UHGV virus genome: UHGV-1366603
DNA: 64,000 nt
DNA from: a virus
Reading direction: 5' to 3' (one strand)
The notes under the pieces are model-generated. The model was not told the origin of the DNA, searched no databases, and worked only from the letters and a program-made list of their open reading frames with translations. Position numbers and translations under genes: made by a program. Below, piece after piece: positions 8,060-47,206 of the stretch. The stretch's first letter is position 1, and the number at the start of each line of letters is the position of its first letter.

Positions 8060-8995
8060 ATGGCATTCCCGAATATGCTCGCTATGTTGTTGCCGAGCTT
8101 TGAAGCAACAAACTTGAAAAATCAGCTTTCGTCCAACTGCGATGCAATTGGCGAACAACTTTTACCACGTTTCCAGTCTTTACAAGAACTGGTAGCGTCG
8201 AAAGAAGGCAAACCGTTTAAATCGAAAACGGTACAAGAAATATCCGATGAAGTGGTTAACTACCTGCGGACTTCCGGTCTGGAAGCCAAAGGTCTCCGCA
8301 ATCCATCGATGTTAGAGTACATCGTTTCCTCGATGGAAAACGTGTTGCAGTTGCGTTCTTTCTTAGACCAATGTATTGCGCGTGACATTGGTAAATCGTT
8401 AGTCACGTCTTCAATGACGTTTAATAAATTAACGGTGCTCAGACTGCTTGACCTGATTGATTTCTTCACAGGTTACAGTGCTACGTTACTTAACTACGTT
8501 ACCGCAGAAGAGATTGCCGCTGTCGAAGGCTCGAATATTGAAGTGAAGGGCATCGGTCCGAATGACCTTCAATACCTCAATACTCGTTCGGTCTCTTACT
8601 GCATCGCCATCCGTGTTTTGGCAACGCCGGTAAATAAACTGAAAGCGGATTATGCCGAAATCCCAGAAGCGATTTTCAACGACGAAACTTACGGTGAGTT
8701 GGTTCAGCAGTTCGGTTCGGGCTCGACTGACCCGCTGGGAATGAGCAGTGTACCGTTCCCGATCTCATTGGTACTTCGCGTTCGTTTGAATATTGCTGAA
8801 AGGCAGATGGATAAATACGACGAGTGCGTAGAAGCAGCGAAAGCTGCGGAGTTGCGTATCCTGCTTTACAAAAAGCAAGTAGCGGAAGGTAAGGGAGATG
8901 CGCACATCGAAAAACTCATCGAGCTAAGTGAAAAGCATCTGTTGGAACTCAAGCATAAGCGTGAGCGTCTTGAGAAGAAATACGGTTTAGTGTAA
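8060..8995 (+). CDS. hypothetical protein (311 aa)
   Basis: ORF with AAGGGG RBS, 10 bp after previous stop. Confidence 0.75.
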   Translation: MAFPNMLAMLLPSFEATNLKNQLSSNCDAIGEQLLPRFQSLQELVASKEGKPFKSKTVQEISDEVVNYLRTSGLEAKGLRNPSMLEYIVSSMENVLQLRSFLDQCIARDIGKSLVTSSMTFNKLTVLRLLDLIDFFTGYSATLLNYVTAEEIAAVEGSNIEVKGIGPNDLQYLNTRSVSYCIAIRVLATPVNKLKADYAEIPEAIFNDETYGELVQQFGSGSTDPLGMSSVPFPISLVLRVRLNIAERQMDKYDECVEAAKAAELRILLYKKQVAEGKGDAHIEKLIELSEKHLLELKHKRERLEKKYGLV

Positions 8996-9012
8996 ACCGT
9001 TAGGAGAGCCTC

Positions 9013-9573
9013 ATGTTTGAGCACGATAGTCCCGATTTTAATGTGGCTGTAGAGCGCATTAAAACCTATATGTCGATTTTATCAAAAAACCCAATCGACA
9101 CACACGATGACGAGCTTATTCACAAAACGCTGGAAGCGTGTGCGGTTGTATTACCGTACTTTCGTCTGTTAGCTGCTGACTCTGTGCAGCAGGTATTATA
9201 TGACGAATATCCGCAGGTCGGATTTACCTTTAATACGTTTTATAACGAAAGCGTAGCCTTCCTGCTTGATGGTAAACGACGCACTGTGACGTTAGGACAG
9301 TGGTCCGTATTGCTGTCGTCGTACATGAATGATGTTCGCAATACGAAGAACGTTGAACAGACGGGCTCATTGGGTGCACGTCTTCTTGCTGCTGCGTTTG
9401 GTCGCCGGGGTACTGTACGTAATATGGGTTCCGCTCACCAGTCTGTTGAGTGTAGCAAACGTCTTTTATCTTATGCAGACCATGAACTGCTGGCACGCTG
9501 GATGACACGCCCGAACGGGTTGTCCGACATGATCTCGTCGTTAGCAGTGTTTTTGAAAATCGCACGTCCCTAA
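9013..9573 (+). CDS. hypothetical protein (186 aa)
   Basis: ORF with TAGGAGAG RBS. Confidence 0.75.
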   Translation: MFEHDSPDFNVAVERIKTYMSILSKNPIDTHDDELIHKTLEACAVVLPYFRLLAADSVQQVLYDEYPQVGFTFNTFYNESVAFLLDGKRRTVTLGQWSVLLSSYMNDVRNTKNVEQTGSLGARLLAAAFGRRGTVRNMGSAHQSVECSKRLLSYADHELLARWMTRPNGLSDMISSLAVFLKIARP

Positions 9574-9604
9574 GGGGGCCCCTCATTCTAGGGGCGTGTA
9601 ATTG

Positions 9605-9616
9605 GGTTATATAACC
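9605..9616. promoter_or_regulatory. perfect 12-bp palindrome GGTTATATAACC upstream of highly expressed paralog gene (candidate promoter/operator)
   Basis: Read directly; sits 17 bp upstream of ATG 9633 between RBS and a GC hairpin. Confidence 0.3.
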
Positions 9617-9632
9617 AAAGGAAATAAACGAA

Positions 9633-10904
9633 ATGGCAAATTTCGCAAAAACTCGCGCCGCTCGTGAATCAATGGAAGCGGCCGATGAAGTAATCGACGG
9701 TATCAGCAACGTTGAACCGGCAGAAGAGAACCTGGACGTCCAGCTTGCGGACGTTGCATCTATCGACGGTCAGCTCGAACAGCTGGAAACCGACGGTGAA
9801 ACCCTGGCTGCCGATACCGAGCGTACTGAAGACGCTATCGAACAGGCGGAAGAAGCCGTTGCTAACGGTGAAGAAATGCCGGAAGAAGCGGTTGCCCTGC
9901 ATGAAGTGGCACAGGAATCCATCGCACGTCGTTGGAACCTGGAGCGTACTAAACTGGCTCGCGAATCCTATCGCCGTGGCCGTGGCATGACTGCTGCTGC
10001 GCAGGAAGGCTGGAAAGAAACCCTGAAAGGTCTTTACGAGCGTTTCATTCAGTTCTGTAAAGAAGTAATTGCGAAGATCAAAGACCTGAAACTGAAATAT
10101 TTCAACGTCGGTAAGACCGCACAGAAACGTGCGAAGAAATATCAGGAAATGATCCGCAAGCTGGGCAAACAAGATAAAGACAACATTTCTGGCGGCTTTA
10201 TCACCAAACTGTCCATCGAAGGTAAATTCGATGCTGCTGGCTCTATTGCCATTGCTAAAGAAGTGACCGCAGGTAAAGCTAAAGGTGCTATCAGTGCACT
10301 GGAAAAACAAGCTGGTGAAGCTGTGACTGCTGTTACCAAAGGTGACGATGACGCATTCAAAGCGATGCGTGGTGATCAGCCGGTTGAACTGTTTGGTAAA
10401 GCAGCGTCTAAACTGCATTCTCTGCCGAACTTTGAAAACGGCGATGCGTCTAAACTGCTGGCTCTGCCGGGCAACGCTTACGTTCAGGCTGGTACTAAAG
10501 AACTGGCTGGCGGCCACAAGTTCACCGCAATTGCGTTCATGAGCACCGGTGACGCTTCTGACGATAAAGAAGTGGCTACTCCGTCTGTTTCCGAAATGGC
10601 TGGCGCGGCATCTGCTCTGGAAGCGATCGGTAAAGGCTTCGAAGCTGTACTGAAAGATTTCCGTGCTTACGATTCTGAAATCGTGAAACTGCAACAGGCT
10701 GCTGAAAAAGCGTCCAACGCGCTGAACAACGAAAAAGACGAAAGTAAGTGGGAAGGACTGCGTAATGCACGTCAGGCCGCTGATCAGTCTGTGAAGAACT
10801 ACCAGACCCTGAACCGTGCCGTTAGCTATGTTGCTAACACCGTTATTAGCGGTCTGAACGGTTACCTGGGTGCTGGTATCGGCGCGTACAAAAAGTCTAA
10901 ATAA
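9633..10904 (+). CDS. abundant acidic-N-terminus protein, paralog A (423 aa); candidate head internal/scaffold-like virion protein
   Basis: Starts MANFAKTRAARESMEA, same as downstream paralog; strongly host-optimised codons (ctg/cgt/ggt/aac); long antisense shadow ORF. Confidence 0.85.
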   Translation: MANFAKTRAARESMEAADEVIDGISNVEPAEENLDVQLADVASIDGQLEQLETDGETLAADTERTEDAIEQAEEAVANGEEMPEEAVALHEVAQESIARRWNLERTKLARESYRRGRGMTAAAQEGWKETLKGLYERFIQFCKEVIAKIKDLKLKYFNVGKTAQKRAKKYQEMIRKLGKQDKDNISGGFITKLSIEGKFDAAGSIAIAKEVTAGKAKGAISALEKQAGEAVTAVTKGDDDAFKAMRGDQPVELFGKAASKLHSLPNFENGDASKLLALPGNAYVQAGTKELAGGHKFTAIAFMSTGDASDDKEVATPSVSEMAGAASALEAIGKGFEAVLKDFRAYDSEIVKLQQAAEKASNALNNEKDESKWEGLRNARQAADQSVKNYQTLNRAVSYVANTVISGLNGYLGAGIGAYKKSK

Positions 10905-10943
10905 TTAGACTTACGCTCGTACAGTTCTTGAAATAAATCAATA

Positions 10944-10962
10944 GGGGAACGACGTGTTCCCC
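10944..10962 (+). other. intergenic hairpin GGGGAAC-GACGTG-TTCCCC between paralogs (weak terminator/processing site)
   Basis: Stem-loop seen in sequence; no strong T-run. Confidence 0.3.
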
Positions 10963-10980
10963 TTAGAGGAAAAGCTTAAA

Positions 10981-12243
10981 ATGGCAAATTTCGCAAAAAC
11001 TCGCGCCGCTCGTGAATCGATGGAAGCTACTGCTACTGTAGTTCCAGACGGCATCGAACTGCCAGCAGAATCTGTTGAAGGTACTCTGGCCGATATCGAA
11101 CATGATACCAAACCGATCGAAGCCCTGGACGCTGACGCTGAACTGCTGGCCGAAGACGGCGACGAAACTGATGCTCAACTGGATGTCCTGGATGAAGCTC
11201 AGGCCGCTGCCGACGGTGAAGGTGCTGGTGAAGACGGCGAAGAGCCGATGGACGCTGAAGAAGATATGCCGGACGACGCAGCGACTGCGCTGGACGTTGC
11301 TCAGGAATCTATCCGTTCTCGTTGGAACTTCGAACACCGTTCTTCCGTTGCACACGAATCCTACGGTTCTCGTAACCGTCGCCAGGTTGCTCGTGAATCC
11401 CTGTGGGAAGACATTAAAGCATTCCTGAAACGTATCTGGGAATGGCTGAAAGAACAAGGCCGTAAGATCAAAGATCGTTGGCTGAAATTCTCCAACCAGG
11501 GTAAATCCATCCAGGCTCGTTCTAAGAAATACGACGATGCTATTCGTAAACTGGGCAAACAGAAGAAAGATGAAATCTCTGGTGGCTTCATCAAGTCTCT
11601 GTCTATCGACGGTAAATTCGTTGGCGACGATCTGTCGCGCCTGAAGAATATCCTGAACCACGTCTCCACCTACTACAGTGGTAACGTTCAGAGCTTCCTG
11701 AACAACGGTACGGATATGGTTGGTAACGTCGTTAAAGGCGATGGTGCTAAAGTTGAGAAACTGAAAGCAGACTTCGCTGCTCTGGCTAAAGAAGACGTTA
11801 GCAAGTTCAAACTTGGTAACATGGCTCTGAAGATGGAGTACGACGAAGAAGGCGGATTTAGCTCCAGCTATGTGGAAGCTGAAAACCGTGCTGAAACCAA
11901 CGTGAAAACTCCGTCTGTTAGCGAACTGGCTAAGACCAATGCCTTCTTCAACGAAGTGGGTAAACAGATCGAGAAGAACGTTCTGGAATATCGTAAGACT
12001 GAACAGGCTCGCGAGAAATTCAGCCAGCAGATTGAGAAGCTGCTGAAAGAAATCGACAGCGTGAAGATCGACGAAAAACCGCAACTGACCGAATCTGTAC
12101 GTACCGCACGTCGTTACATCAACAGCATTAACCAGGCAGTGTCTCTGGGCGAGAAAGTTATTTCCTCTACTCAGAAACATCTGGCTGGCGGTCTGAACGG
12201 CTATATCTCCGCAGGTATCGCTGCTTACGAAAAATCTAAATAA
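10981..12243 (+). CDS. abundant acidic-N-terminus protein, paralog B (420 aa)
   Basis: Start set at MANFAKTRAARESMEA (track ORF begins upstream at 10954); shared N- and C-terminal motifs with paralog A (…GLNGY…AGI.AY.KSK). Confidence 0.85.
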   Translation: MANFAKTRAARESMEATATVVPDGIELPAESVEGTLADIEHDTKPIEALDADAELLAEDGDETDAQLDVLDEAQAAADGEGAGEDGEEPMDAEEDMPDDAATALDVAQESIRSRWNFEHRSSVAHESYGSRNRRQVARESLWEDIKAFLKRIWEWLKEQGRKIKDRWLKFSNQGKSIQARSKKYDDAIRKLGKQKKDEISGGFIKSLSIDGKFVGDDLSRLKNILNHVSTYYSGNVQSFLNNGTDMVGNVVKGDGAKVEKLKADFAALAKEDVSKFKLGNMALKMEYDEEGGFSSSYVEAENRAETNVKTPSVSELAKTNAFFNEVGKQIEKNVLEYRKTEQAREKFSQQIEKLLKEIDSVKIDEKPQLTESVRTARRYINSINQAVSLGEKVISSTQKHLAGGLNGYISAGIAAYEKSK

Positions 12244-12260
12244 TCTCTGATTGTTTAGTA

Positions 12261-12308
12261 GGAGAACCACCCTGTAATGGGGTGGTTCTCCCTTTTCTTT
12301 TTTTTTTC
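12261..12308 (+). terminator. intrinsic terminator
   Basis: GGAGAACCACCC-TGTAAT-GGGGTGGTTCTCC hairpin followed by long T-run. Confidence 0.9.
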
Positions 12309-12322
12309 GCATTAAAAATAAT

Positions 12323-12352
12323 CTCAGATAGATATTACCTTAGTGAGATTAC
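12323..12352 (+). promoter_or_regulatory. promoter-like motif copy 1 (CTCAGATAGATATTACCTTAGTGAGATTAC)
   Basis: 30-mer identical to 47177-47206; lies after terminator and 46 nt upstream of ATG. Confidence 0.55.
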
Positions 12353-12398
12353 GCTGTAATCATTTAACGACCTGTTTATTACGTTTAGGAGAATTATC

Positions 12399-13040
12399 AT
12401 GACACGTTACAATTTAGCCGACTTCTGCGATTGTGCCTTTTCTGTTGAAGGTGACAAACTTGTAATGGCTGCGCCAAACGCAAGAGTTTTATCGTTGTAT
12501 CAAGCCGAAGTTATTGCAATTTCGATTTGGTTGGCAAGGGCTATAGACGGCGGCTGTAAGGACCTTGATAAAGAAGTGTTGAAAGTCGGTCGTCGTGAAT
12601 TTGTGTATAAAGCAGAAATCCAGAACCGTTTACCAAAGACCTTTTTAAGCAGCTTGCTTAAAGATGTCAACACCCCAGTTGTCAGCCGAACATTTGACGG
12701 GGTGAAATATTACTCTTTTGAAGATTCGCACGTTGCTATCTGTGAAGGTGAGAATAAGTTTTTTACGACCGTTATCTACTTTCGTATTGCTGAACCTACG
12801 AAAGAAGAACTGGTTTGCAATACTGCGAACGATGTGGCCGTGATGCGTATGGACGATATCACCAGTGAACTATCTGGATTAAATGACATACCGCGTATTG
12901 TGGAGCGAGTCTTGGAAGGAGACGATTACTTTAAGTTGCTTCCGCTGGTAGCAAGCGAAGAAACAGAACAGGAAAGCGCTTTCATTCAGGTTAACCTTAC
13001 CGCTGCACAGGCGGTGGATCGTTTCTTCGAAGCTTTATAA
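12399..13040 (+). CDS. hypothetical protein (213 aa)
   Basis: ORF with TAGGAGAAT RBS downstream of promoter-like motif. Confidence 0.8.
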   Translation: MTRYNLADFCDCAFSVEGDKLVMAAPNARVLSLYQAEVIAISIWLARAIDGGCKDLDKEVLKVGRREFVYKAEIQNRLPKTFLSSLLKDVNTPVVSRTFDGVKYYSFEDSHVAICEGENKFFTTVIYFRIAEPTKEELVCNTANDVAVMRMDDITSELSGLNDIPRIVERVLEGDDYFKLLPLVASEETEQESAFIQVNLTAAQAVDRFFEAL

Positions 13041-20577: not shown

Positions 20578-20610
20578 TCAGATATATATTACTTAGGTGA
20601 GAGAATTACG
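20578..20610 (+). promoter_or_regulatory. promoter-like motif (TCAGATATATATTACTTAGGTGAGAGAATTACG)
   Basis: Variant of the 12323/47177 motif, contains TATATTAC and GTGAGA; 39 nt upstream of ATG 20650. Confidence 0.5.
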
Positions 20611-24474: not shown

Positions 24475-26760
24475 ATGAAAGATACCCGAATCTCTAATTT
24501 AGAGAAACTCGTAGAAGCCGGTACTAGTCTGGCCCAAAACGTCATCGGCAACAACACCGCCAGCGAAATGTGGAATACGATTGTTGCAGGCGAGTCCGTA
24601 CGCAGCAACGCAAAAGTGTTTGGCGCTCTGCGTGACGAAGCATCACAGCACTATGCCAACGCTTTTGGTGGCAAGAAAATGTCTCATGCTGCGACTGTCG
24701 CCTCCGCAATGATTCTGGGCGCAGCTAACCACGGTAAAGACCTGCAAGAACGTGTTGCCCAGGAATACGCTAAGCCGGAATTCCACACCAAGTATAACCT
24801 GGATATTGGTATCCCTGGTGCGCAAGGTGGTGACTGGGGTCGTGAGCGCATGGTTGTTGCTCAGGAATACTACAGCAACAAAGACTACGACAAAAACCTG
24901 GGCCTGACCTGGACCCTGAACGTACGTGCTCTGGAAACTCAGTCCAAGTTTGCTGAAACACTGTTCCCGACCATTACCGTCGACACCAACGATGTTGGTA
25001 TTACCGTACGTACTAAAGTGACTACCGTTTCTCGCGGTATCATGAACGCGCTGCTGAGCAAAGACGTCGTTGAAGATCATCGTCGTCCGCTGCACAACGC
25101 ACTGACTGACCACACCGTTCTCCAGGACGAAGCGATCAACATCGTTCCTTACGTAATGGAAACCGGTGAAAACCAGGAATACTTCGTAAGCGAAGAACTG
25201 GTTCCGAACGAAACCGTTCGCCTGGGTCGTGTACCTCCGTATCCGACTAACTACCTGAGCTTTGCAAACGACACGCTGAACCTGTTCCAGCTGTCTGCGC
25301 ATCCGGGTATCGTTCAGGAAGGTTACGAAGAAACTGATGAAATCGCACCGGGTTGTGCTCTGGGCAGCCTGCTGATTTCTGTACGTAAACCGGCCGAAGA
25401 AGCGAAAGCGGGTAAATTCATCAAACTGCACGTTCGTGACATGCAGTTCGCAACCTTCCAGCGTCCTGCTGAAGGTGACGGCCGTGAACTGGTTCTGCAA
25501 TTCCGTCGTACCGCGTTCTCTCTGAATGCGAAAACCACTGACTGGAAAGGCGACGCTATTCCGGCTCTGCAAGCACTGGGCCAGAACTCCTACACCCTGC
25601 GCTACGTTATCACCATCACCATGTCCCTGTTCACCAGCGGCCAGTTCGGTGGTAAAGTAGACATTTCCGGCCACAAACTGGAAATCGAAGGTCTGTACGA
25701 TGCAACTGGTAACAAAGTTGATACCAAGTCTGGTACCGGTAAAGTTATCCTGGATGGCCTGAAACTTGAACTGATGGGCTGGCGCTTCGATGGTACTCGT
25801 ACCAACGAAAACCGTCGTACCCAGGGTCTTCTGCTTGACCCAATTTGGGAACAGGAAAACTACAAACTGCAATACGGTTCTCCGATTCTGACCAAGTCTC
25901 CGGTTGGTGTTGAATACGACGACACTGAACGTCTGGACGACCTGATCTCTGCGGTGAACATCCGTAACGAACAGCTGGCTATTACTCAGACGCTGTCTTA
26001 CACCGAAGCAGTACGTAACGCAGCCGCTGCGATGATCACTCCGTGGGACAAACCGGCTATCCGTGGTCTGGGCCGTCACTGGGTTGCTCCGTGGTTCAAA
26101 GAGTCTGACTACAAAGTCGATGAAGTTGTTCAGTCTCTGGATACCAAAGAAGCGCTGATCAACGCTCGTCAGGGTCTGTTGCAGCGTATCGGTAGCCAGG
26201 TAACTCAGGCTATCCAGGATTCTCGTTTCATTCCTGCACTGCGCCTGCTGACCGCTGATCCGGACATTCTGCCGAAAGTTATTATCGCAACTGACGAACC
26301 GACTGCATCTATGCTGCTGCTGGTTCAGGGCGACCAACGTCTGCTGGGCGACCGTTATGAATACGAAGTCGTTACCACCAACGATGACCGCTGGCGCATC
26401 TACAACGCAGCTGACGATTCCTGGACTCGTCGTCTGCAATGGTTCCTGAAAGTTCCGACTGCGGACGATGGTTCCTACTGCGTACTGAACTGGGGTAACC
26501 ACTTCTGGTCTCCGATCATGGTTACCAACATCAACATCCAGCGTAACGGTTCTACTTCTAAAGAACTGGCTGTACAGCCGCGTAACGCGCATATCTGCCA
26601 CTGCCCGATCACTGGTCTGATTTGGGTTAAAGGCATCACCAAACTGGTTGAAGAAAAACTGGCTTACAACGTTTCTGTAGAACAGAACGGCCAGAAACAA
26701 ACCGACGGTGGTGTAGCAGGTAATGTTGCTGGCGACGGTAAAGACAAAGCTGGTAAATAA
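24475..26760 (+). CDS. major virion structural protein (761 aa); candidate major capsid protein (alternatively tail sheath)
   Basis: Extreme host-optimised codon usage, strong terminator after it, 685-aa antisense shadow ORF; size matches phiKZ-type major capsid proteins (from memory). Confidence 0.85.
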   Translation: MKDTRISNLEKLVEAGTSLAQNVIGNNTASEMWNTIVAGESVRSNAKVFGALRDEASQHYANAFGGKKMSHAATVASAMILGAANHGKDLQERVAQEYAKPEFHTKYNLDIGIPGAQGGDWGRERMVVAQEYYSNKDYDKNLGLTWTLNVRALETQSKFAETLFPTITVDTNDVGITVRTKVTTVSRGIMNALLSKDVVEDHRRPLHNALTDHTVLQDEAINIVPYVMETGENQEYFVSEELVPNETVRLGRVPPYPTNYLSFANDTLNLFQLSAHPGIVQEGYEETDEIAPGCALGSLLISVRKPAEEAKAGKFIKLHVRDMQFATFQRPAEGDGRELVLQFRRTAFSLNAKTTDWKGDAIPALQALGQNSYTLRYVITITMSLFTSGQFGGKVDISGHKLEIEGLYDATGNKVDTKSGTGKVILDGLKLELMGWRFDGTRTNENRRTQGLLLDPIWEQENYKLQYGSPILTKSPVGVEYDDTERLDDLISAVNIRNEQLAITQTLSYTEAVRNAAAAMITPWDKPAIRGLGRHWVAPWFKESDYKVDEVVQSLDTKEALINARQGLLQRIGSQVTQAIQDSRFIPALRLLTADPDILPKVIIATDEPTASMLLLVQGDQRLLGDRYEYEVVTTNDDRWRIYNAADDSWTRRLQWFLKVPTADDGSYCVLNWGNHFWSPIMVTNINIQRNGSTSKELAVQPRNAHICHCPITGLIWVKGITKLVEEKLAYNVSVEQNGQKQTDGGVAGNVAGDGKDKAGK

Positions 26761-26831: not shown

Positions 26832-26856
26832 GGATAGATATTATCAAAGGGAGACT
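26832..26856 (+). promoter_or_regulatory. promoter-like motif (GGATAGATATTATCAAAGGGAGACT)
   Basis: Resembles AGATAGATATTAC core of other copies; after terminator. Confidence 0.4.
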
Positions 26857-47176: not shown

Positions 47177-47206
47177 CTCAGATAGATATTACCTTAGTGA
47201 GATTAC
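47177..47206 (+). promoter_or_regulatory. promoter-like motif copy 2 (CTCAGATAGATATTACCTTAGTGAGATTAC)
   Basis: Identical 30-mer to 12323-12352; same 46-nt spacing to ATG and similar leader. Confidence 0.55.

Follow-up and report, generated by a model that had tools for sequence, protein, structure and literature searches.

Two adjacent genes of the virus genome UHGV-1366603, here called gene A and gene B, stand out in the stretch of 64,000 nucleotides that was analysed (hereafter the window). They raise the question of what two related proteins, encoded side by side and in codons so unlike those of neighbouring genes, do for a phage. An earlier note, made from the letters of this stretch, had guessed at abundant head-internal or scaffold-like proteins. 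The matches to PF12699 and phrog_2497, the synteny and the published data on gp53 and gp54 of Salmonella phage SPN3US all support this guess, and we hold with high confidence that A and B are the two high-copy internal head proteins of a SPN3US/Asesino-like jumbo phage, belonging to 'paralog family A' and to PF12699. Directly established here are the paralogy, the family, the synteny, the conservation of mapped cleavage motifs, a codon bias at the level of the capsid gene, and the regulatory boundaries of the unit. The biology of these proteins is already published for the SPN3US orthologs, and is here rediscovered from sequence alone. New here are a well-supported conversion of the leader shared by both proteins, the concerted evolution of this leader, the mosaic alleles of gene B, a hairpin before the ribosome-binding site of gene B, and a terminator with an early-promoter-like motif.

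A tandem pair of internal head protein genes

The DNA of the window is about 75% identical to Erwinia phage Asesino, SPN3US and their relatives, and no near-identical record was found in the phage collection. Both products match the PF12699 profile (phiKZ_IP, phiKZ-like phage internal head proteins) over positions 2-387 of 387, with 249.9 bits for A (E 6.6e-74) and 201.3 bits for B (E 3.7e-59), the curated gathering threshold being 27 bits. They also match phrog_2497, 'internal head protein' (E 2e-146 for A, 1e-119 for B). A shows 70% identity with SPN3US gp53 and 74% with Asesino gp70, and B 59% with SPN3US gp54 (E 3e-164). The gene order of the window is that of SPN3US gp50-51-52-53-54 ... 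DHFR cluster, and also that of Asesino gp67-gp75, in which the pair is gp70/gp71. The same tandem arrangement was found in 12 further phages. Both copies are present in 62 of 62 related Enterobacteriaceae-phage records, so that the duplication predates this phage group; two Vibrio phages have one copy.

The two genes had been described in the earlier note as tandem paralogs, and pairwise BLASTP agrees, with 35% identity over the full length (E 2e-55). For gene B, the open reading frame (ORF) delimited mechanically opens at GTG 10954. Aligned orthologs point instead to ATG 10981, which a GAGGA Shine-Dalgarno sequence precedes by 10 nt; the GTG was dropped, as it sits within a conserved hairpin and the ATG is used by all orthologs. 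Both products open with the same 16-residue leader, MANFAKTRAARESMEA, encoded by DNA identical at 46 of 48 nt. The pattern M(A)NF....ARES.E, by which members of SPN3US paralog family A are recognised, is common to both, and residues N3, F4, A10, E12 and S13 are invariant in 53 homologs. No MANFAKTRAARESMEA-type leader was found in other window proteins. After the leader, an acidic stretch is followed by a basic one: in A the net charge is -19 for residues 31-90 and +14 for 91-180, and in B it is -27 for residues 31-120 and +11 for 121-210. At the C-terminal end, GLNGYLGAGIGAYKKSK in A and GLNGYISAGIAAYEKSK in B share the motif GLNGY..AGI.AY.KSK, of which G407, A418 and Y419 (A numbering) are invariant in the 53 homologs. 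The common start, the acidic then basic N-terminal region and the common end had all been noticed before, and each holds.

Codon usage sets the pair apart. We computed the codon adaptation index (CAI), the frequency of optimal codons (Fop), the effective number of codons (ENC) and the GC content at third codon positions (GC3) for 61 window ORFs, using for CAI approximate E. coli weights after Sharp & Li. CAI was 0.691 and 0.694 for A and B, Fop 0.79 and 0.80, and ENC 33-34, against window medians of 0.30 for CAI and 49 for ENC. The pair ranks second and third by CAI, behind the major head protein gene (24475-26760, + strand; CAI 0.706; phrog_3231, E 7e-279). Rank 4 is only at 0.44, and the other 58 ORFs are at 0.44 or less. 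The claim that codon usage is more host-optimised than in the neighbours is therefore correct and also specific, a CAI of 0.69 being matched only by the major capsid gene. This parallels what is published for SPN3US, whose three most abundant head proteins are gp53, gp54 and the major capsid protein gp75 (PMC5694885; PMC7411985; PMC7552025), gp53 and gp54 being present in > 600 copies each per head (PMC5694885).

The same bias has a side effect on the opposite strand. The codons TTA, CTA and TCA are absent from gene B and account for a single codon of gene A; since they are read as stops on the other strand, long antisense frames stay open, of 341 aa (9669-10694, -) opposite gene A and 449 aa (10963-12312, -) opposite gene B. 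We discarded both as artefacts of codon bias. The 449-aa frame exceeds the real gene B in length, and would mislead a gene caller that keeps the longest ORF.

Some database records of homologs call for comment. PF12699 is carried by 109 full- or near-full-length matches among 116 homologs. The other seven (P0110-P0116, from Salmonella phages SPFM5-SPFM20) are gp53 homologs with 20-residue blocks in reversed order, a database artefact: 20 residues correspond to one 60-nt sequence line, so that a minus-strand gene was apparently reversed line by line. A partial protein of an E. coli assembly (NCBI, P0003), 100% identical to A, is named 'preprotein translocase subunit YajC'. We consider this a mis-annotation, the Pfam match being below threshold (16.9 bits vs 28.2) and involving a basic helix, 156-193. 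Close relatives of the phage occur as single contigs of ~220-227 kb in assemblies of Salmonella, Shigella and E. coli isolates (e.g. L021, GCA_010977795.1, 226 kb), and complete genomes of E. coli and Enterobacter ludwigii carry them as 'plasmids' of 222 kb (NZ_CP173450.1; NZ_CP134650.1), which suggests a carrier state, pseudolysogeny or culture contamination.

Predicted propeptides, cleavage motifs and the probable fate of the mature domains

In SPN3US, mass spectrometry has shown that the prohead protease gp245 cuts gp53 at ARE-12, AQE-95 and AQE-125, and gp54 at AQE-124 and ARE-137, favouring V/A at P4 and Ser at P1' (PMC10052503). At each of the five positions aligned to these sites the window proteins keep an A-X-E motif; what is conserved is the motif, from which cleavage is predicted. 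ARE-12, AQE-95 and AQE-125 of A correspond to the gp53 sites of the same numbers, AHE-126 of B to gp54 AQE-124, and ARE-139/SLWEDIK of B to gp54 ARE-137/SLWDDIK. The sites, written P4-P1/P1', are AARE-12/S, VAQE-95/S, LARE-111/S and AAQE-125/GWKETLK (predicted maturation site) in A, and AARE-12/S, VAQE-109/S, VAHE-126/S and VARE-139/SLWEDIK (predicted maturation site) in B, and those aligned to the mapped sites show the published preference. The predicted masses (Table 1) are nearly equal to those published for SPN3US. The propeptide of A contains eight A-X-E motifs, compared with 4.2 expected by shuffling (P 0.03). The major head protein of the window has VAQE-131/YYSNK where SPN3US gp75 has its mapped maturation site, ATE-130/YYTNK, and the same protease specificity probably applies in this phage. 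The earlier note had proposed processing after Glu in S/A/G-X-E motifs, as in phiKZ-like phages. Processing after Glu fits the conservation of the mapped ortholog sites, but the motif has to be narrowed: in this phage group it is A-X-E, usually with V/A at P4 and Ser at P1', and not the broader phiKZ form.

A pathway can be proposed from these elements. A and B would be transcribed late, as one highly expressed unit ending at a strong terminator, and hundreds of copies of each ~46 kDa precursor would be built into the procapsid. Assembly and targeting would be the task of the first ~125-139 residues, which are acidic and include the shared 12-residue leader; they would keep both proteins beneath the capsid lattice, in an inner shell. 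A serine protease of the prohead (gp245/S80-type) would cut after A-X-E, at E12, inside the propeptide, and at AQE-125 in A or ARE-139 in B. Basic, helix-rich mature domains of ~31-32 kDa would be freed, would remain with the DNA in the head, and would probably be expelled into the cell along with it. The orthologs behave in this manner: capsids that lack the protease contain a T=1 inner shell, made up mainly of gp53 and gp54 as judged by SDS-polyacrylamide gel electrophoresis (SDS-PAGE), and both proteins stay in mature heads and are counted among the ejection proteins (PMC7552025). In phiKZ, residues 14-84 of gp93 remain on the inner capsid surface and its helix-rich domain is freed by cleavage (PMC11297242); gp93, gp95 and gp97, which belong to PF12699, are injected with the DNA, and gp162 is not (bioRxiv 10.1101/2024.03.24.586471).

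How much of this holds for the present phage has to be weighed. Copy number, location in the head, cleavage and ejection are properties that we infer from the orthologs, abundance being suggested by codon usage as well. Several points weigh against the pathway. Abundance, cleavage and ejection would be carried over from proteins that are 59-70% identical. The enrichment of A-X-E in the propeptide is modest, with a P of 0.03 for A and 0.14 for B. The protease gene is not expected within the window, the gp245 gene being far from gp53/54 in SPN3US. As phiKZ gp162 also belongs to PF12699 and stays in the head, ejection is not family-wide (bioRxiv 10.1101/2024.03.24.586471).

The behaviour of gp162 leads to one of the alternatives, namely that A and B are static internal proteins, of an inner body or spool or cementing the capsid, which organise DNA and are retained in the capsid at infection. 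Not only gp162 but also gp89 stays in the phiKZ head (bioRxiv 10.1101/2024.03.24.586471), N-terminal pieces of both gp93 and gp162 are attached to the inside of the capsid (PMC11297242), and the basic mature domains (pI 9.3-9.4) are compatible with DNA binding. The SPN3US literature, however, treats gp53 and gp54 as ejection proteins, and the high-copy phiKZ homologs gp93, gp95 and gp97 were seen entering the cell, so that we judge retention rather unlikely. A pure scaffold, fully degraded and expelled with nothing left in the mature head, as T4 gp22, is most improbable. It would account for the acidic, helical and highly conserved N-terminal part with its several protease motifs, and for the fact that the SPN3US proteins make an ordered T=1 inner shell only before proteolysis. 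Yet in SPN3US the mature fragments of ~31 kDa rank among the three most abundant proteins, both in purified virions and in tailless heads, and the A-X-E motifs are clustered in the propeptide (8/13 in A, 6/9 in B) rather than dispersed.

The predicted structure bears on another alternative, in which the mature domains would be membrane-active, ClyA/Nhe-like proteins that remodel or pierce the host inner membrane after ejection, for instance aiding the early infection vesicle. With AlphaFold2 and an alignment of 53 sequences, A was modelled (predicted local distance difference test 82, predicted template modelling score 0.81) as a long helical bundle overall: residues 1-27 are disordered, long helices span 34-77, 84-101, 119-175, 319-366 and 370-417, and a beta-containing insert lies at 177-315. 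Foldseek matches of this model are full of alpha-pore-forming toxins (SmhA, ClyA, NheA), IpaD and flagellins, that is, of long helix bundles with a beta insert. The Gly-rich C-terminal motif is conserved, and injected phiKZ gp93 co-localises with a membrane stain and pulls down membrane proteins (bioRxiv 10.1101/2024.03.24.586471). All these Foldseek matches are nevertheless weak (E > 0.3 and template-modelling score < 0.2), and neither protein has a hydrophobic segment (maximal Kyte-Doolittle mean over 19 residues of 0.99 in A and 0.44 in B). Membership in the ClyA/Hbl/Nhe-type alpha-pore-forming toxins was accordingly rejected, and we consider membrane activity very unlikely. A search with the sequence of A alone found no relative of solved structure. 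The weak matches given by the family profile to Snf7/ESCRT-III in the acidic propeptide (E 0.005, 19 bits) were judged compositional. We retain internal head proteins, cleaved and probably ejected, as the reading of this locus, and the combination of capsid-level codon bias with an acidic propeptide bearing A-X-E motifs is a reliable signature of such proteins.

Exchanges in the leader and in gene B

The leader evolves in concert in the two paralogs. In 15 genomes, A-B identity within a genome was 0.90 over the first 15 residues, which is 0.19 above the between-genome value, and this excess was near zero elsewhere in the protein. Residues 5-9 illustrate it: they are AKTRA in both A and B of the window, VKSKL in both proteins of SPN3US, and AQRKI in both proteins of pEa_SNUABM_29. 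In the CR5 and Wellington groups, both paralogs begin with MNF, not MANF. Recent conversion is ruled out as the general cause of this identity, since in 14 of the 15 genomes the synonymous codons of the leader are no more alike than codon usage predicts. In these 14 genomes, either the identity is maintained in the protein sequence or the conversions date far back; a recent event is found only in the lineage of the window.

In that lineage, 12 of 14 synonymous codon choices of the leader are common to A and B, vs 7.7 expected. The tract in gene B (Table 1) is identical at 47/47 nt to the A genes of sister phages L016, L018 and L020. In these sister phages, known from metagenomes, A is 95% identical and has the same leader, and the B alleles are 76-80% identical; those of L016 and L018 encode MANFYKNKIARESMES and differ from the window tract at 13 of 47 nt. 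A recent A-to-B gene conversion of the leader is thus well supported by these comparisons.

Gene B varies in another place as well. Its allele-variable segment covers about residues 200-310 (nt 11578-11910). Sequence entropy over 54 close homologs of B is highest at residues 221-300, and propeptide residues 21-140 are nearly invariant. Nucleotide identity in the variable segment falls to 59-67% among phages whose upstream flank is 99-100% identical. Between L016 and L018, identity is 98-100% upstream and 92-100% downstream, and 59-88% over 11431-13040, which contains mature B and the next gene. In L018, a 59-aa ORF is found in place of the 213-aa ORF of the window (12399-13040). As judged from these alignments, the 11431-13040 region is a local recombination hot spot among near-identical phages.

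The ratio of nonsynonymous to synonymous substitution rates (dN/dS), a crude Nei-Gojobori estimate, was 0.00-0.13 in the propeptide of B, the most constrained part among close relatives, as expected for an assembly role. In the variable region it was 0.24-0.37, which gives no sign of positive selection; together with a dS of ~1, these values point to old B alleles exchanged by recombination. These observations, like the concerted evolution of the leader, could be useful to the field of jumbo-phage head assembly: a propeptide that is removed is more constrained than the mature domain that is retained, and a gp54-like mature domain recombines among near-identical phages. One may then picture a split of roles, in which A is a conserved assembly partner and the ejected mature domain of B consists of old, diverged alleles shuffled by recombination, possibly since this protein encounters host defences once ejected, while short-tract conversion from A re-homogenises the 12-16-residue leader so that any B allele fits a common packaging receptor. 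We regard this scenario as doubtful, and its links to host defence and to a targeting function of the leader are speculation.

Boundaries of the unit and known systems compared

Elements around the pair were compared across 15 genomes (the window and L001-L014), and their positions are collected in Table 1.

Table 1. Features of the A-B locus and their positions in the window
Feature	Coordinates	Strand	Details
Hairpin upstream of A	9578-9595	+	GC-rich, GCCCCT-cattct-AGGGGC; directly follows the stop codon of the gp52-like gene upstream, within the leader region of gene A; kept in 15/15 phages
Palindrome	9605-9616	+	GGTTATATAACC; upstream of the gene A Shine-Dalgarno AAGGAA (9618-9623)
Gene A	9633-10904	+	ORF, 423 aa, 45.6 kDa; ortholog of SPN3US gp53 (high-abundance internal head / ejection protein)
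A propeptide, predicted	9633-10007	+	residues 1-125, 13.7 kDa, isoelectric point (pI) 4.25
A mature protein, predicted	10008-10901	+	residues 126-423, 31.9 kDa, pI 9.33; ends GLNGYLGAGIGAYKKSK
Hairpin before B	10943-10963	+	AGGGGAAC-gacgt-GTTCCCCT; 2 nt upstream of the gene B Shine-Dalgarno GAGGA (10966-10970); no T-run after
Gene B	10981-12243	+	420 aa, 46.6 kDa; ortholog of SPN3US gp54
Conversion tract	10981-11027	+	47 nt, gene B codons 1-16, copy of the gene A 5' end
B propeptide, predicted	10981-11397	+	residues 1-139, 15.0 kDa, pI 4.07
B mature protein, predicted	11398-12240	+	residues 140-420, 31.7 kDa, pI 9.43
Intrinsic terminator	12261-12306	+	hairpin 12261-12291 and T-run; 14-bp stem, 8 GC pairs, 3-nt loop; closes the A-B unit
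Early-promoter-like motif	12321-12349	+	TCTCAGATAGATATTACCTTAGTGAGATT; heads the next low-GC, low-CAI gene block

At the position of the palindrome, GGTTATAACC or GGTTAACC is kept in 15/15 genomes, with the form GGTTATA(TA)ACC, and it is a candidate promoter or operator of the late transcription unit. Together with the hairpin that precedes it, it may represent a late promoter/operator or an RNA element. Right before (Y)AGAGGA of gene B, all 15 genomes have a GC-rich hairpin of 7-10 bp whose stem sequences differ, with compensatory changes at 4 of 7 consensus pairs; it could be an element of mRNA processing or stabilisation, or of translational control. A strong hairpin with a T-run stands at the same place after B in 15/15 genomes, and A and B would form one transcription unit. 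A scan of 8900-12600 for sigma-70 promoters gave a single weak match, on the - strand, and nothing on the + strand; shuffled sequences gave more, and this shortage fits transcription by a phage RNA polymerase.

The terminator after B is followed by TCAGATAGATATTACCTTAGTGA. The sequence GATAKATATTAC occurs four times in the window vs 0.39 expected, always on the + strand and between ORFs (12327-12338, 20581-20592, 26833-26844 and 47181-47192). Two of these sites were read, 12327 and 26833, and both lie after an intrinsic terminator. The motif matches promoters predicted for phiKZ (TATATTAC), 201phi2-1, OBP and N1M2 (PMC7058600), and its copies are probably early promoters heading low-GC gene blocks. 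On the other side of the pair, the gp52-like gene (9013-9573, +; 186 aa) matches PF25618, the phiKZ gp91 capsid vertex-binding protein (29 bits, cut-off 27), so that the internal-protein genes adjoin a gene of the inner-capsid vertex complex.

Among known systems, SPN3US gp53/gp54 are the closest. Like A and B, they are a tandem pair in the same neighbourhood, of the same lengths (70% and 59% identity), with leaders identical within the genome, A-X-E motifs at aligned positions and the same C-terminal motif. The leader itself differs, being MANFAKTRAARESME here and MANFVKSKLARESVE in SPN3US, and A-B nucleotide identity over it is 46/48 here, with its recent conversion, vs 40/48 in SPN3US. The central part of the mature domain has diverged between the window proteins, which are known from sequence, and gp53/gp54. 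That codon usage is as biased as in the major capsid gene was established for the window.

The phiKZ proteins gp93, gp95, gp97 and gp162 share with A and B the PF12699 family, a helix-rich fold and clustering of paralogs; their high copy number, and the separation of a capsid-binding N-terminal part from the helix-rich domain, are predicted for A and B as well. Cleavage after Glu near residue 12-13 is found at SLE-13 in gp93, and predicted at ARE-12 here. Sequence similarity is at the profile level only. The phiKZ system has five to eight paralogs, ~100-200 copies of each, and a visible cylindrical inner body, whereas SPN3US-like phages have two paralogs at > 600 copies each; the protease motif is S/A/G-X-E in phiKZ and A-X-E here.

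A more distant parallel is offered by the internal proteins IPI, IPII and IPIII of phage T4. These have a short common N-terminal leader, the capsid targeting sequence, which the prohead protease removes after Glu, and they are packed and injected with the DNA. The likeness to T4 internal proteins was also drawn in PMC5694885. There is no sequence or fold relationship between them and A/B, and the T4 proteins are small, with a leader of ~10 residues only and without the ~110-125 further acidic propeptide residues of A and B. By analogy, the leader of A and B is a putative capsid-targeting signal, and a leader that is copied from A to B, and that co-evolves in the two, is what would be expected of such a signal shared by both proteins.

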